This document shows positions 3,498 through 63,733 of a stretch of DNA of 64,000 nt, one piece after another (the stretch's first letter is position 1; every line of letters begins with the position of its first letter). The notes under the pieces were generated by a model. That model saw only the letters and a program-made list of their open reading frames with translations. It was not told the origin of the DNA and did no database searches. Origin of the DNA: Candidatus Heimdallarchaeum aukensis (GTDB lineage Archaea; Asgardarchaeota; Heimdallarchaeia; Heimdallarchaeales; Heimdallarchaeaceae); the NCBI GenBank assembly GCA_021513695.1, contig CP084166.1, positions 2,016,001 through 2,080,000 on the forward strand. The letters are read 5' to 3'. A program made the position numbers and the translations under genes.

Positions 3498-3605
3498 TGG
3501 TGCACGCGCCGGGATTTGAACCCGGGTTCCGTCAGTTCCACAACTACTTTCATACAGAAAGCAGCTTGGCAGTGACGAGTCCTAGCCAAACTAGACTACG
3601 CGAGC
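3498..3605 (-). tRNA. tRNA-Gly (anticodon GCC) with an intron of about 31 nt at or next to the anticodon loop
   Basis: Minus-strand read: GCTCGCG TA GTCT AGTTTGGCTA GGAC T CGTCA CTGCCAA [intron] TGACG GAAC CCGGG TTCAAAT CCCGG CGCGTGC A CCA. There is one T-T mismatch at acceptor pair 3-70. Confidence 0.7.
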
Positions 3606-9131: not shown

Positions 9132-10514
9132 CTATCTTCTATTTTTTAAAAAACGGAGGAGATTTTTAAGGGAGAAAAGAGAAACAAAGGATAAGGGAGT
9201 AATTACGATTATTAAATACATCATCTGATTCTTAACTAAGGGATTGGTATGATTGTAAAATTCTTCAAGATTAGTTAGACCGTCCCCGTCAAAATCAAGA
9301 TAAGAGTCATTAGTCAAAGGGTCAGAACCATAATGAACTTCCCAACCGTCAGGTAAAAGGTCTCCATCAGTGTCGCTAGACCAAGGATCAGTACCATAAA
9401 CATGATCTTCAAGATAATCCAGAAGGTTATCTCCATCGAAATCGCTCCCACGAGGAAAAGGGTCAAAAGCTTTAGCCGCGCCATCGATAGGGTAAGGTTC
9501 AGAGCCATCAGTATCTGACCAATAGTTGCCAATAGAATAGACGGGGTCAAACCAAGTGTTATTTATCCCATCATCAAAAGCTTGAGAAAGGTTCTTACCT
9601 TGATTGTTCTTGAAAAAAACATTACGAGAGATAAAGTTGTTAGAAGCAGATTTGTAAATATATAGTCCATACTCGCTGTTATTAAAAAAAACATTAGAAG
9701 AAAGGTGATTGTTAGAACCACTTACGGACAAACCACTTCTTCTGCTCTCGGAAATAACGTTATCGGTCACAGTGTTATTATCCCCACCTATTGCTAACCC
9801 ATCATAATTGGTATAAATAATGGTATTATTTGATATGAAGTTATTATGTCCTGAACTAAGAATTCCCCGTTCTCCACTATACAACAAGTAGTTATTAGTA
9901 ATAACGTTAAAACAAGTGTCGGTCATATCAATGCCACTTGCCCATCTAGTGTAAGAAATGTTATTACCGCTAACCAAGTTGTGAGAACCGTAGTGGATAT
10001 CTATTGCCTCCTCGGTGTGAGTGATAAAATTGTTAATAATGACATTATCAGAACTATGTAATGTTATCAATTCGCGTGAATAAGTTTTATTGGTCCCACC
10101 AATAAGAGTGGAGCCTTCAAGATGAAGATGGGCATTATCCCGTGCTCCAATATTCCAAGGACTGTCGGTGTAAGTTAGGATAGTAGTATCATAGATCGCT
10201 AAAGAAGAATTATCATAGGCATAAATACTTAGAGAACCTACTCGATCATGTTCAATAACAATAAAACAGTTACGAAGAATAAGAGAGCCTTCGTCCTTGA
10301 CATCAACTCTGTTGGTAAGTTTAATAAACTCGTTCTCAACTACAGTAGGTTCGGTAATGTTCCAAATACCATCAGGGGGAGGAAAAGAGCCAGAGCTAGA
10401 TGCTGAAGAAGTAACTATCGGACTAAAAGTAGGTGAAAATAACATAATAGAAGAAAAAATCATAAACACAAGTACAAACGAATTCTTTTTCCTTTTTTTT
10501 AGAATAAATATCAT
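9132..10514 (-). CDS. secreted right-handed beta-helix (PbH1/NosD-like) protein with C-terminal thrombospondin-type-3/dockerin-like Ca-binding repeats and a C-terminal hydrophobic anchor
   Basis: 460 aa. N-terminal signal/TM segment. Repeated NNxIxxN / GxxxxGSNN beta-helix rungs. DFDGDNLLD...DTDGDLLPDGWE...DFDGDGLTNLEE repeats of the DxDxDG type. C-terminal TM segment followed by a basic tail. Confidence 0.7.
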   Translation of the reverse strand: MIFILKKRKKNSFVLVFMIFSSIMLFSPTFSPIVTSSASSSGSFPPPDGIWNITEPTVVENEFIKLTNRVDVKDEGSLILRNCFIVIEHDRVGSLSIYAYDNSSLAIYDTTILTYTDSPWNIGARDNAHLHLEGSTLIGGTNKTYSRELITLHSSDNVIINNFITHTEEAIDIHYGSHNLVSGNNISYTRWASGIDMTDTCFNVITNNYLLYSGERGILSSGHNNFISNNTIIYTNYDGLAIGGDNNTVTDNVISESRRSGLSVSGSNNHLSSNVFFNNSEYGLYIYKSASNNFISRNVFFKNNQGKNLSQAFDDGINNTWFDPVYSIGNYWSDTDGSEPYPIDGAAKAFDPFPRGSDFDGDNLLDYLEDHVYGTDPWSSDTDGDLLPDGWEVHYGSDPLTNDSYLDFDGDGLTNLEEFYNHTNPLVKNQMMYLIIVITPLSFVSLFSLKNLLRFLKNRR

Positions 10515-10652
10515 GAATAAATAGACCTTTTTTTATTAATAAATTTTTGTAAATTATTGCTTTACCAGTCATTTAATGTTATAAAACAGTAAATTAAAGT
10601 CACATTATAAAAGAAATAAATGAATTAAGAATAGTAAATTGGTACCTATAAA

Positions 10653-40664: not shown

Positions 40665-40768
40665 TGGTGCGTCAACCGGGAATTGAACCCGGGCCGTCGA
40701 ATCTCTTCTTGAGGCTTCTAGACGCCATATAATGGAAGTCCGACGTACTACCACTATACTATTGACGC
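40665..40768 (-). tRNA. tRNA-Gly (anticodon TCC) with an intron of about 30 nt
   Basis: Minus-strand read: GCGTCAA TA GTAT AGTGGTA GTAC G TCGGA CTTCCAT [intron] TTCGA CGGC CCGGG TTCAATT CCCGG TTGACGC A CCA. Confidence 0.7.
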
Positions 40769-47645: not shown

Positions 47646-48335
47646 ATGGTGCTTTTAGAGATTCTTGTACTCCTTGTAGGATATATCTGTGGCTCGATTC
47701 CCGTAGGTTTCTTAATAGGAAAAATAGGTTATAATATTGATGTAAGAAAACATGGTAGTGGAAATATAGGAATGGCAAATGTAATGCGTCTATGCGGAAA
47801 AAAAGCAGGAATAATGACAATGATAGGTGATATGGTAAAAGGAACAATTGCCGTTCTAAGTGGGAGAATATTAATATGGACAAAAAATTTTGAAGGATTA
47901 GGAAAAATAGGACAAGTAGAATTAACAAATGAAGGGTTATTTCTGTCATTAATAGTCTTTACAACAATAATAGGGCATAGTTTTCCAATATGGTTAAAGT
48001 TTAAAGGAGGGAAATCAGCAAGTGTGGGAGGAGGAGCAATATTAGGAATAAACCCAATAGCATTTGTAATAATAATGAGTTTATGGATTGTTATACTTAA
48101 AAAAACTAAATATACTTCACTTTCAAATTTAGTAGCAGGTATGCTCTATCCTCCATTGTTATGGGTGTTCGCGGGAACTGATCCTTTCTTTAACAACAAT
48201 TGGCAAGCAGCAATAGTAGGAGCAATATGTTTGTTGTTTGTAATCTGGAGACATAGGGAAAATGTGTCAAGGTTAATAAAAGGAACAGAAAGAAAAATTG
48301 GACAAAAAGAAAAAATAGAAGAGAAAAAAGACTAG
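47646..48335 (+). CDS. plsY: PlsY-like glycerol-3-phosphate acyltransferase family membrane protein
   Basis: 229 aa, multi-TM. N-terminus LLVGYICGSIPVGFLIGK and the signature HGSGNIGMANVMR (compare GSGNxGATN of PlsY). Confidence 0.6.
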   Translation: MVLLEILVLLVGYICGSIPVGFLIGKIGYNIDVRKHGSGNIGMANVMRLCGKKAGIMTMIGDMVKGTIAVLSGRILIWTKNFEGLGKIGQVELTNEGLFLSLIVFTTIIGHSFPIWLKFKGGKSASVGGGAILGINPIAFVIIMSLWIVILKKTKYTSLSNLVAGMLYPPLLWVFAGTDPFFNNNWQAAIVGAICLLFVIWRHRENVSRLIKGTERKIGQKEKIEEKKD

Positions 48336-51658: not shown

Positions 51659-51797
51659 TGGTGCCCCGACCGGGAACCTCAAAAAAAATGCCTCAACATT
51701 TTTCTTTTTGAACCCGGGTCTGCGGATATTCCTGCCACATCCGCGAACTTTAGCATGTGAAAGTCCGCAATGATTGGCCGAGCTACACCATCGGGGC
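51659..51797 (-). tRNA. tRNA-Glu (anticodon TTC) with two introns (anticodon loop, about 30 nt; T-loop, about 33 nt)
   Basis: Minus-strand read: GCCCCGA ... T GCGGA CTTTCAC [ATGCTAAAGTTCGCGGATGTGGCAGGAATA] TCCGC AGAC CCGGG TTCAA[AAAGAAAAATGTTGAGGCATTTTTTTTGAGG]TT CCCGG TCGGGGC A CCA. The acceptor and T stems are perfect. The T-loop is 41 nt long unless an intron is removed from it. Confidence 0.65.
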
Positions 51798-51999
51798 ATA
51801 GAGTTTTTGTCTTGTTGAAATGATAGAATTAAATTGATTTTTAATATTTTTGTTTGTCGTGTCCTCTTATTAATAATGATTTTCTTTATATTCTGTTATT
51901 ATCTTACAGAGATAAATTTAAAAAATAAATGTTAACTCGTTTCTTAATCCATATAGAAAAACTGCTCGTTTCCTACTTTGTTCATTTGCTTAAAATTTC

Positions 52000-52084
52000 G
52001 CGGGGATTGCCGAGCGGTCAAAGGCGCTGGACTTAGGATCCAGTCCTTAGTGGTTCGAGAGTTCGAATCTCTCTCCCCGCACCA
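52000..52084 (+). tRNA. tRNA-Leu (anticodon TAG), class II with a long variable arm
   Basis: GCGGGGA TT GCC GAGCGGTCAAA GGC G CTGGA CTTAGGA TCCAG [long variable arm] GAGAG TTCGAAT CTCTC TCCCCGC A CCA. Confidence 0.85.
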
Positions 52085-52095
52085 TTTCTTCTTTT
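52057..52095 (+). repeat. attL-like 39-bp direct repeat (3' end of tRNA-Leu plus 11 nt downstream)
   Basis: gagagttcgaatctctctccccgcaccatttcttctttt is repeated identically at 54886..54924. Confidence 0.85.
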
Positions 52096-52127
52096 ATCTT
52101 TATATATTTCCTTTTCCTTTTTTCTTT

Positions 52128-54881
52128 ATGGTTGCTTTTTCTCCTACTTTTTCTGTTATCGATTCTTTCTCTTTTCTTCACGACCCTCAATTTGTTTTTT
52201 TACTTCAGACTTTTATTGATTCTTCCCCTGACTTTTTTTCGTTTCTTTCTCTTCTTTCTTCCTCTTCTCCCTCTTCTCTTTCTTCTTTTGTAAGGGACAT
52301 TTTTTTACTTATTTCTTTTGATGATCCTTTTTCTCTTTCTTCTTCCTCTTTTCATTTTTTTGATTCTCATTTTAATTGGAAATCTTTTCTTTCCTTTTTC
52401 CTTGATTCTTTTTCTTCCCGTAAATTTTCTCTTTGCAATTTTTCTTTATTTTATGCTCATTTTTCTTTTTTGCATTTTTCTATTCCTAATTTTTTATCTG
52501 ATTTTGCATTCTTTTTTTTATCTGATTTAGATTTTAATTTTTTATCTTCTTCCTTTTTCAGTTCTTTTTTCTCTTTTGAATCTTTTTATGATTTTTTCTT
52601 TTCTTATTTTGATTCTTTTTTACCTTCCTATCGTCTCCTTATGCGTCATCGTTTTAATTCTTCTCCTAACCATTTTTTTCCTCCTTTTCTTCCATTCCTT
52701 CGTTCTGAAGAGGTTAGCTCTTATTTTAAGTCCTTTCTGTATATTTGTGGCTTTGATAAATCTGTTTTCGGTTTTGGTTCTTCTCGTGCTAAGGTTGATC
52801 CTCGTCAATTTGCTGAGTCTTTTCAAACTTCTTGGATTAAATTGCACTTTCATTTAGACAAAATGCGTTTTCCTTTTACTCTTTCTTCTACTCGTGTTCT
52901 TTCTCTTTATCATCCTGGTCGTTATGTTTCTTCTGTTAATCCAAGTAATGGTTTTGACGATCTAATTGTTTTTTCTTCCTCCTCTTCCATTCCATCCTCT
53001 CTTTCCTCTTCTCCTTCTTCTCTTTCTTCCTTTTCTTCTCCCGTTTCTCCCTGCTTTACTATTTGTGTTATTGAGCAAAAAATGAACCATTTAGACGTTA
53101 AGCGTTTAGATAGTCCTTCTTCCTCTTCCGATTTTACGCGTTATCTCTCTTACCTTGCTAAAACCCACTTAAATCCCTTTATTCTTCTTTTACAAGCGTT
53201 TCATTATCCTGAAAAAGATAGACTTAAATTGTCCTCTCTATTGTATGATCGCTCTTTAACTTATTCTAACTCTGTTGGATTAGACTTTTTACGTAAAATC
53301 ACGAATGGTGATTTTCTATCTTCTCTTAAACTAATTGAACCTTCTTTAGATGATCAAACTATCAATAATATTCTTCGGGGTTCTATTATCCAGCACCAGC
53401 TTATTTCTTTGATTAAGTCTGGTTTTTGTTTTAAATTGGCTTTTGTTGATGGTTATTATACCGTTAAAAAGAGGTATCCTGGTGACCTGGTCTCTTCTGT
53501 TATATGTTATTATAATTGTTTAAATGGTTCTTGCGTTGAAATCCATTTTCCTTCGTCGCTATTTGAAATAAGAATAGATTCTAGGGGTCATTTTCTTGTA
53601 CCTCAGTACTCTGAATCTCAGATTTCTTCATATGCAAAGACAGAAAACGAGCTTATGGCTTATCAGGAACTCAACAATCTATTTAACACTTTACGGAGCG
53701 ATATGATTTTTAATGTAAATATTTTGTCTCTCCCTCCTTTTGAAATTGTAAAAAAAGTTAATTTATATCAAAAAAAGATTCTCTTTTTTTTACTTAATTC
53801 TAGACGAATTGCTGATTTAAGTATCTTTAACGATGGTTTTGTTAAATCTTATTTGGAAATTTTTACTTTACCAAAAACAGCTCATCGGATCAAGAGATAC
53901 TTATCCTATATACACGATTCACTTTCAATTTTTCCCTATTCGTTTTATCAGCAGTGGAATGCTCCTTTTGGCGATAGACTAAAAAACATGTTCTCTGGTT
54001 CTTTTAGTCGTGATACCCTTCTTTGTAAGCGTTTTAAAGAAAAGCTTCTTGAGTTTATTTTATCCTCTGATTATGATTTTTCCGAAATGCCTTTAGAATT
54101 TATTGAAACTAAGTTACGTCATTCACCTGATATTCAAATTTTTTTAGATTGCTATTTTAGTCAGTTTGCTCTTTATCCTGACGGTAATTTTTTACGGTTT
54201 AAACATAATAAAATTTCTTTGAAAGCTCTTGCTTTTTGGGATGAGACCAACAATCAATGGTTTTCGCTTAACAAGAAGCGTTTTTACATTTTATTGAACT
54301 TTGAAGATATTTTAGCTAATATAAGTAAGGAAGTGTCTTTTAAAGTAACAAAAAATCTTTTGCTTTTTCCTATTAAATTTAGTTTAAATAAACGCACAGG
54401 GCAGTTATCAGCTCTATTTAATACTGATTTTACTAACACTGAAGTAAACAGAATTTGGGTTGCATATCTTAAAAAATTGAAAGGAATGGATCTTTCCTTT
54501 GAGATTTTGTCCTCTTTTTCTTATGGTCAACGAAATAAGCGGAGTGGAATTGATTTATTCTATAACTGTAACCAAAAAAAGCTTTCAATATTGTTGGCAA
54601 TATTATCAGAAACTATTAAGTTGTGGAGTTTGGTTAAAGAACTTGTCCTTAACGTTGTTTATAAAAAATTAGATTCTGAAATGGATAAAATTATCTTATC
54701 TACCAAAGGAGATAAAATTGTTCTCAATGGCAAGCAATACAAAATGGTCTTACTCAATTACAATGAAAGTAATTCAAGGGTTAGGTGGTCGTTTAAACAC
54801 TACCTATTTCCTGTTGAAGGAACAATTATTGATGATTTTGTTAAAAAATGTTATTCTATTTATACTGATTTATTTTCTTAG
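52128..54881 (+). CDS. element-encoded hypothetical protein; start uncertain (the ORF-track start at 51978 runs through tRNA-Leu and is an artefact)
   Basis: A long frame stays open to 54881. The first roughly 320 codons are Ser/Phe/Leu-rich low complexity from the polypyrimidine tract, where all three plus frames lack stops. The C-terminal roughly 600 aa (from about MNHLDVKRLD at 53084) have normal protein-like composition. No catalytic motifs were recognised. Confidence 0.4.
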   Translation: MVAFSPTFSVIDSFSFLHDPQFVFLLQTFIDSSPDFFSFLSLLSSSSPSSLSSFVRDIFLLISFDDPFSLSSSSFHFFDSHFNWKSFLSFFLDSFSSRKFSLCNFSLFYAHFSFLHFSIPNFLSDFAFFFLSDLDFNFLSSSFFSSFFSFESFYDFFFSYFDSFLPSYRLLMRHRFNSSPNHFFPPFLPFLRSEEVSSYFKSFLYICGFDKSVFGFGSSRAKVDPRQFAESFQTSWIKLHFHLDKMRFPFTLSSTRVLSLYHPGRYVSSVNPSNGFDDLIVFSSSSSIPSSLSSSPSSLSSFSSPVSPCFTICVIEQKMNHLDVKRLDSPSSSSDFTRYLSYLAKTHLNPFILLLQAFHYPEKDRLKLSSLLYDRSLTYSNSVGLDFLRKITNGDFLSSLKLIEPSLDDQTINNILRGSIIQHQLISLIKSGFCFKLAFVDGYYTVKKRYPGDLVSSVICYYNCLNGSCVEIHFPSSLFEIRIDSRGHFLVPQYSESQISSYAKTENELMAYQELNNLFNTLRSDMIFNVNILSLPPFEIVKKVNLYQKKILFFLLNSRRIADLSIFNDGFVKSYLEIFTLPKTAHRIKRYLSYIHDSLSIFPYSFYQQWNAPFGDRLKNMFSGSFSRDTLLCKRFKEKLLEFILSSDYDFSEMPLEFIETKLRHSPDIQIFLDCYFSQFALYPDGNFLRFKHNKISLKALAFWDETNNQWFSLNKKRFYILLNFEDILANISKEVSFKVTKNLLLFPIKFSLNKRTGQLSALFNTDFTNTEVNRIWVAYLKKLKGMDLSFEILSSFSYGQRNKRSGIDLFYNCNQKKLSILLAILSETIKLWSLVKELVLNVVYKKLDSEMDKIILSTKGDKIVLNGKQYKMVLLNYNESNSRVRWSFKHYLFPVEGTIIDDFVKKCYSIYTDLFS

Positions 54882-54885
54882 GCTT

Positions 54886-54924
54886 GGAGAGTTCGAATCT
54901 CTCTCCCCGCACCATTTCTTCTTT
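54886..54924 (+). repeat. attR-like 39-bp direct repeat (copy of the tRNA-Leu 3' end)
   Basis: Identical to 52057..52095. The flanking sequence diverges immediately outside the repeat. Confidence 0.85.
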
Positions 54925-54962
54925 TCTTTTGTTTTCTTTTTCGTTTTGTTTCGTTTTGTTTA

Positions 54963-63607: not shown

Positions 63608-63733
63608 GGGGCATTAGCTCAGCTTGGTTTAGAGCATCCGGCTCATAATTTGCGTCCTAGAAACAGTCTAATTCATTAAGAACGCAAAAGAGCGACCGGA
63701 TGGTCATCGGTTCAAATCCGATATGCCCCACCA
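63608..63733 (+). tRNA. tRNA-Met/Ile2 (anticodon CAT) with an intron of about 47 nt; elongator type
   Basis: GGGGCAT TA GCTC AGCTTGGTTT AGAGC A TCCGG CTCATAA [intron] CCGGA TGGTC ATCGG TTCAAAT CCGAT ATGCCCC A CCA. It lacks the three G-C pairs of initiator tRNAs. Confidence 0.75.

Follow-up and report, generated by a model that had tools for sequence, protein, structure and literature searches.

A tRNA-Glu(UUC) gene of Candidatus Heimdallarchaeum aukensis with two putative introns of the bulge-helix-bulge type, one of them in the T-loop

Introns at the 59/60 site, embedded in bulge-helix-bulge (BHB) motifs, and multi-intron tRNAs have been described in Crenarchaeota and Thermoproteales (Marck & Grosjean 2003; Sugahara 2007, 2008), as reviewed in PMC4090602. 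The same review lists 59/60 as a non-canonical tRNA intron site and states that the archaeal endonuclease EndA cleaves the two bulges of a BHB wherever this is present; it also summarises, in its account of Fujishima et al. 2010, the recent gain and transposition of tRNA introns in Thermoproteales. A survey of Asgard archaea that included a Heimdallarchaeota MAG has likewise dealt with tRNA introns of the non-canonical and multiple kinds (Kaneta et al. 2018, PMC5829648); these archaea, again including the Heimdallarchaeota MAG, encode an (alpha-beta)2 EndA with an L1 loop, which has been tied to a lenient recognition of the substrate (PMC5829648). In Atabeyarchaeia and Freyarchaeia, the tRNA genes mostly contain introns, often more than one per gene (Valentin-Alvarado et al. 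2024, PMC11291895). Given these two Asgard surveys, the statement of the initial annotation of the locus studied here, i.e., that such genes are confined to a few archaeal lineages, is outdated. No description of a tRNA-Glu intron at 59/60 was found in either survey, and the Heimdallarchaeum genome paper (PMC8813620) treats tRNA genes only as annotations or integration sites and is silent on their introns.

The locus lies in a stretch of 64,000 nucleotides (hereinafter, the window) of the genome of Ca. H. aukensis, with a GC content of about 32% and an archaeal gene neighbourhood (form III RuBisCO, Nep1, prefoldin, and SRP54). A tRNA-Glu(TTC) gene with two introns and a 75-nt product had been proposed at 51659-51797. 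The analysis of the sequence bears out both the placement and the identity: G1 and the final A of the encoded CCA fall exactly at the two ends, on the minus strand, and the 139 nt comprise three exons and two introns, with a genome-encoded CCA (Table 1). Once the sequence is spliced in silico, with the loss of the 30 and 31 nt of the two inserts, ARAGORN recognizes in it a tRNA-Glu(ttc) of 75 nt plus CCA, with all the stems intact. Pairing is perfect in the acceptor stem (7 bp), the anticodon stem (5-6 bp), and the T stem (5 bp), as had been reported, and the D stem (GUGU/UCAU) is the usual one for archaeal tRNA-Glu; the minimum free energy (MFE) fold of the spliced sequence is a cloverleaf (-35.2 kcal/mol, z = -3.2). 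The extra sequence at the anticodon region, put at roughly 30 nt, measures 30 nt, while the T-loop had been overestimated at 41 nt, 38 nt being actually present between the T-stem strands (a 7-nt loop and the 31-nt insert).

Table 1. Features of the tRNA-Glu(UUC) locus and of the other interrupted tRNA genes, in window positions.
Feature	Position	Strand	Remarks
Candidate archaeal TATA box, AATTTAATT	51827..51835	(-)	30-38 nt upstream of tRNA position 1; putative, read from the sequence
tRNA-Glu(UUC), whole gene	51797->51659	(-)	In minus-strand order: GCCCCGAUGGUGUAGCUCGGCCAAUCAUUGCGGACUUUCAC / AUGCUAAAGUUCGCGGAUGUGGCAGGAAUA / UCCGCAGACCCGGGUUCAAA / AAGAAAAAUGUUGAGGCAUUUUUUUUGAGGU / UCCCGGUCGGGGCACCA
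Exon 1	51757..51797	(-)	tRNA positions 1-38 under the BHB-symmetric 38/39 reading; end at 51758 under the conventional 37/38 reading; anticodon UUC at 51759-51761
Anticodon-side intron, 30 nt	51727..51756	(-)	51728-51757 under the 37/38 reading; from BHB scans and centroid fold
Exon 2	51707..51726	(-)	Anticodon-stem 3' strand, variable loop, T-stem 5' strand, T-loop 54-59 (UUCAAA)
T-loop intron, 31 nt, AAGAAAAAUGUUGAGGCAUUUUUUUUGAGGU	51676..51706	(-)	Site 59/60; strict hBHBh'
Exon 3	51659..51675	(-)	U60, T-stem and acceptor-stem 3' strands, discriminator A, encoded CCA (51659-51661)
Gly-GCC tRNA gene	3501-3605	(-)	31-nt intron at 37/38
Gly-UCC tRNA gene	40668-40768	(-)	30-nt intron at 37/38
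CAU tRNA gene	63608-63730	(+)	47-nt intron at 37/38

ARAGORN, one of the tRNA predictors that had been proposed as a check, recognizes the spliced sequence and does not call the unspliced gene in the window, where it calls three other tRNAs. Likewise, Rfam RF00005 run on the window does not report the gene, neither with the gathering threshold nor with the cut-off set to E<=10. The three exons are colinear inside 139 nt, an arrangement that does not correspond to a split or permuted tRNA. A self-splicing group I or II intron, whose catalytic core spans hundreds of nucleotides, was also considered and discarded, the inserts being just 30 and 31 nt long and the Rfam matches beyond tRNA being noise. 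On the whole, the locus is very probably a functional Heimdallarchaeum tRNA-Glu(UUC) gene interrupted by two protein-spliced archaeal introns of the BHB type.

The folding of the exon-intron junctions, suggested in the initial annotation as a further check, disclosed a strict BHB motif at the T-loop and a relaxed one at the anticodon side. An exhaustive BHB scan of the 139-nt precursor ranked the T-loop motif far above the rest. In this motif, the T stem (CCGGG/CCCGG, 5 bp) is followed by a central 4-bp helix formed by U54-U55-C56-A57 (UUCA) with UGAG of the intron, by two 3-nt bulges (5' AA/A and 3' GU/U, where the slash marks the cut), and by an outer helix (AGAAAAAUG/CAUUUUUUU, 9-10 bp) that ends in the loop UUGAGG. 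Opposite-strand 3-nt bulges, a 4-bp spacer helix, and flanking helices are therefore all present, as in a strict hBHBh'. With cuts behind the second bulge nucleotide on either side, i.e., after precursor positions 91 and 122, nucleotides 92-122 (window 51706-51676) would be excised; since this leaves the T-loop UUCAAAU, which is the same as in the orthologues, the intron site is 59/60, within the range where a second intron had been expected (at or near 58-60).

The specificity of this motif was evaluated in two ways. In a SPLITS-like scan, each strict BHB on both strands of the 64-kb window was excised and the product submitted to ARAGORN; the T-loop site was the only strict BHB in the window whose excision yields a tRNA. 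Besides, a strict BHB at the exact cut sites is formed by 0.09% of random 31-mers (32% GC); when the insert is shuffled with its composition preserved, the frequency is 0.4-1.3%, or 0.007-0.05% if an outer helix of the observed length is also required. A chance origin of the T-loop BHB is thus unlikely. As for its stability, the MFE fold of the T arm plus intron (-18.6 kcal/mol, z = -4.0) retains both T stem and outer helix but lacks the central helix; the strict BHB conformer, at -13.9 kcal/mol, lies 4.7 kcal/mol above it in the thermodynamic model.

The 30-nt anticodon-side intron does not form a strict BHB in the BHB scans; the best motif is a relaxed one, which is also contained in the centroid fold of the precursor. 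It consists of a central helix pairing U33-U34-U35-C36 with GGAA, a proper 3-nt 5' bulge (A37-C38/A), and a 5-bp outer helix, with the 3' splice site (UA/U39) in an asymmetric 1x2 or 2x3 internal loop adjoining the anticodon stem. The two-fold symmetry of this motif suggests an intron at 38/39 and a mature loop CUUUCAC; in the 37/38 register the loop is CUUUCAA, and the central helix is less strong, including one C-A mismatch and two G-U pairs. The register is ambiguous from the sequence, both 37/38 and 38/39 being possible. A rival two-hairpin fold of this intron is more stable than the BHB (-16.9 vs -11.4 kcal/mol). In its first hairpin ("helix P"), which is retained throughout the family, the 5' part of the intron pairs with tRNA positions 27-36; 95.6% of cells are paired, with no covariation.

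In most genomes, the intron reads GAAAGUCCGC in its 5' part, which is conserved and almost perfectly complementary to positions 27-36 of the tRNA (minus strand of window 51743-51768; also in orthologues L008-L029); the resulting helix of 7-10 bp competes both with the anticodon stem and with the BHB. Across the orthologues, the central helix of the anticodon-side BHB is conserved and the outer helix is merely 2 bp long in most; the covariation amounts to a single double change, which affects the outer helix, and to zero in the central one, which can be explained by the orthologue sequences being too similar. A role of this intron as a C/D-box guide was dropped, the intron being too short and its box-like motifs unconserved in this gene.

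In order to compare the gene with its relatives, the 5'-half pattern of tRNA-Glu(UUC) was scanned against the GTDB species-representative genomes, which gave 26 loci, 14 of which are labelled Heimdallarchaeota (13) or Kariarchaeota (1). Orthologous tRNA-Glu(UUC) genes with a 30-31-nt anticodon-side intron occur in Ca. H. endolithica PR6 and in ten Heimdallarchaeaceae MAGs. In all of them this intron is located at the same site, with conserved 5' and 3' sequences; being common to all the Heimdallarchaeaceae orthologues examined, it is old. The T-loop intron has a quite different distribution, since it is present in just one of the 12 Heimdallarchaeaceae orthologues, that of the genome studied here, the other 11 (11/11) having an uninterrupted UUCAAAU.

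The closest sequenced relative is PR6, the sister species of Ca. H. aukensis from the same project (88% ANI; PMC8813620). The LipA (lipoyl synthase) encoded 4 kb away from the gene shows 98% identity with its counterpart in Ca. H. endolithica, the next matches, in Heimdallarchaeaceae MAGs, being at 75-78% identity. The PR6 locus (L007) is syntenic with the window (identities of 95.4% and 94.8% across 5.3 kb and 1.0 kb, respectively), and the two halves of its tRNA-Glu gene align to window positions 51797-51707 and 51675-51600. The 31 nt predicted to be excised by means of the BHB are, to the base, the 31 nt missing from PR6. Moreover, the PR6 gene is recognized by the Rfam tRNA model (49.6 bits), which accepts a 32-nt insertion in the anticodon loop; it is the T-loop insert, then, that hides the gene of the window from this model.

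Among nine distinct orthologues, compensatory double changes affect two pairs of the acceptor stem and, in PR6, two pairs of the anticodon stem, which shows that selection acts on the cloverleaf. The PR6 swaps, with respect to the window and all the other orthologues, are 27-43 G-C to A-U and 28-42 C-G to U-A; positions 26/44 are also swapped there, and the flanks are nevertheless about 95% identical (L007 6892-6897 and 6937-6942 vs window 51765-51770 and 51720-51726). The complete PR6 genome contains a single match to the tRNA-Glu(UUC) 5'-half pattern, at the syntenic locus. According to this count, taken from PR6, the gene probably exists in a single copy, on which the reading of GAA would depend.

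A low-complexity, A/T-rich, and palindromic insert might also be an assembly or sequencing artefact arising in a hairpin-forming stretch. The same sequence was retrieved, however, from a separately assembled 1.6-kb contig (L030) of the Logan assembly of SRR15988954, in which both inserts are present and which is base-for-base identical from tRNA position 5 onward; even though the two assemblies may share one sequencing run, an artefact would not be expected to form a strict BHB with exact tRNA-restoring boundaries, and this explanation is extremely improbable. Further carriers of the T-loop allele were sought by means of the neighbouring proteins, and the contigs retrieved were too short or non-syntenic, L030 being the only one that covers the gene. 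Window-type LipA was found in runs SRR15988954, SRR15988958, and SRR15988959, and PR6-type LipA in runs SRR15988956, SRR15988960, and SRR15988961.

The restriction of the insert to one of the 12 orthologues might also indicate a gene recently inactivated by a 31-nt hairpin, through missplicing or premature termination, with tRNA-Glu(UUC) supplied by another gene. The insert contains a run of eight U (U8). Oligo-U tracts are termination signals in archaeal transcription, and part of the transcripts could therefore end before exon 3. The failure of ARAGORN and Rfam to find the gene would fit with inactivation as well, and the same holds for the lack of other copies marking an established intron family. 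Indeed, a search of the window for the 20-nt core of the T-loop intron (AAAAATGTTGAGGCATTTTT, <=3 mismatches) gave no second copy, and the exact 20-nt core retrieved from the metagenome contigs (11 matches, JGI) and viral contigs (one match) lies in unrelated contexts, none of them in a tRNA. It should be noted, however, that the insert forms a strict BHB restoring exactly the ancestral UUCAAAU, an outcome to be expected from only about 0.1-1% of inserts that are random or shuffled, and that the exon stems are all intact; furthermore, a back-up gene is not to be expected, as the complete PR6 genome matches the 5'-half pattern only once, at the syntenic locus. An inactivated gene is thus quite improbable, and a functional gene with a spliceable T-loop intron is preferred.

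The distribution of the T-loop intron also bears on its origin. The 11 lineages that lack it retain the anticodon-side intron, so that one recent gain is the most parsimonious scenario; we infer gain rather than loss, and the T-loop intron is most simply regarded as a recent acquisition of the lineage of the window. The alternative is an intron ancestral to the genus and precisely lost in PR6, e.g., by recombination with the cDNA of a partly processed tRNA. Precise intron loss is a known process, and the comparison covers only two genomes at the Heimdallarchaeum level. Yet the ten more distant orthologues also lack the T-loop intron and possess the anticodon-side one; either the loss must then have recurred, or the gain is still a recent event at the level of the genus. 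In addition, if the loss had been mediated by a cDNA, the anticodon-side intron, which PR6 keeps, should have disappeared as well. This scenario is hence improbable, and a gain is to be preferred.

The more specific reading, that the 59/60 intron arose de novo very recently in a single Heimdallarchaeum lineage, arriving with a complete strict BHB on universally conserved T-loop bases, is somewhat favoured here. Two 9-nt identities of the T-loop intron, one shared with other Heimdall tRNA-Glu genes (acceptor strand, GTTGAGGCA) and one with an insert upstream of the PR6 gene (AGAAAAATG), were treated as coincidences. The additional matches given by a relaxed SPLITS-like scan of the window and 15 related loci fell in att repeats or at the 3' ends of tRNAs and were artefacts.

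Concerning the maturation of the transcript, the primary transcript would fold to form a BHB at each exon-intron junction. EndA, presumably the enzyme involved, would cut inside both 3-nt bulges of the T-loop BHB, and an RtcB-type ligase would then join the exons into a 75-nt tRNA already carrying CCA, with a predicted spliced 59-60 junction …GGGUUCAAA/UCCCGG…. We infer that the precursor is cut at both BHBs and ligated to mature tRNA-Glu; a splicing of this kind usually also yields the intron in circular form. The U8 run of the T-loop intron, and the fact that the strict BHB conformer is not the MFE fold, speak against this model. The initial annotation had maintained that such introns imply a broad-specificity splicing endonuclease; this does not hold for the T-loop intron, whose motif is a strict hBHBh', and does hold for the relaxed anticodon-side motifs, which, here and in three neighbouring tRNA genes, call for a lenient enzyme, in agreement with the Asgard (alpha-beta)2 EndA (PMC5829648). 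A tblastn search of the window with an approximate Methanocaldococcus EndA query gave no significant match.

Overall, four of the seven tRNA genes of the window are interrupted. The two tRNA-Gly genes and the CAU tRNA gene of Table 1 show imperfect BHB motifs and an encoded CCA, and they are all found by Rfam (3/3) and not by ARAGORN (0/3).

Other features were disclosed in the surroundings of the tRNA-Glu gene. In PR6, 41 extra nucleotides (comprising AGACAAAA repeats and more) are located between the conserved AATTTAATT and tRNA position 1 (window 51798-51840 vs L007 6818-6864), so that the candidate TATA box would lie about 75 nt upstream there vs about 34 nt in the window. The PR6 sequence just downstream of tRNA-Glu (L007 7352-8000) is located about 41 kb away in the window (9895-10549, 86% identity), which places a rearrangement breakpoint immediately downstream of the gene. 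The window also harbors, at 47646-48335 on the plus strand, a homologue of the bacterial-type PlsY glycerol-3-phosphate acyltransferase (Pfam PF02660, E = 1e-48).

The 3' part of the neighbouring tRNA-Leu(UAG) gene (52000-52084), i.e., T arm, acceptor strand, CCA, and downstream bases, is repeated about 2.8 kb downstream (repeat at 54877-54915; 52046-52121 matches 54877-54947). Such a repeat is the signature of an element integrated in the tRNA gene (window 52085-54947). About 1.9 kb of the element (52832-54763) are missing from the syntenic PR6 locus. The element carries a 967-aa ORF (51978-54881) with a Ser/Phe-rich N-terminal part and zero Pfam matches, and its plus strand is strongly T-rich (AT skew -0.40).

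As to the meaning of these data, probably the only tRNA-Glu gene reading GAA escapes the standard finders; since neither ARAGORN nor the Rfam tRNA model sees it, an automatic annotation would list an essential tRNA as missing. The same gene in the closest relative is devoid of the T-loop intron, which would make the locus an instance of intron gain, dated and exact to the base, from the lineage closest to eukaryotes. If the de novo gain were true, the two genomes would represent a natural before/after pair for studying the acquisition of BHB introns in the archaeal group closest to eukaryotes, and might permit testing the idea that T-arm introns spread by breaking the tRNA attachment sites of integrating elements; the neighbouring tRNA-Leu carries an integrated element of such an attachment-site-using kind.

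The T-loop intron belongs to a known class, that of the non-canonical BHB introns and multi-intron tRNAs already reported for Asgard archaea, and the locus adds a Heimdallarchaeum example to it, without revealing any novel type of element or any novel enzyme. As in the Crenarchaeota and Thermoproteales cases, a short 59/60 T-loop intron and an anticodon-side intron coexist in one gene, the exon bases provide one strand of the BHB central helix, and the standard finders miss the gene; unlike those cases, the host is an Asgard archaeon (Heimdallarchaeum) rather than a member of TACK, and the intron is the only strong non-canonical one in the approximately 190 kb of Heimdallarchaeaceae sequence scanned, whereas Thermoproteales possess dozens per genome. 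As in the gains described in Thermoproteales (Fujishima et al. 2010), close relatives reveal a "modern" intron in a pre-existing tRNA gene at a BHB-capable site; in contrast to the transposition cases of that group, no donor of similar sequence was found in the window, the JGI metagenome contigs, or the viral contigs. The disrupted tRNAs of the Asgard surveys (PMC5829648, PMC11291895) belong to the same superphylum and share with this gene non-canonical or multiple introns, attributed to the (alpha-beta)2 EndA with the L1 loop. While those surveys report genome-wide counts, the intron is here polymorphic between congeneric genomes; what the locus adds is the exact placement of a strict motif at 59/60, a probably essential tRNA missed by the finders, and a presence/absence contrast with PR6.
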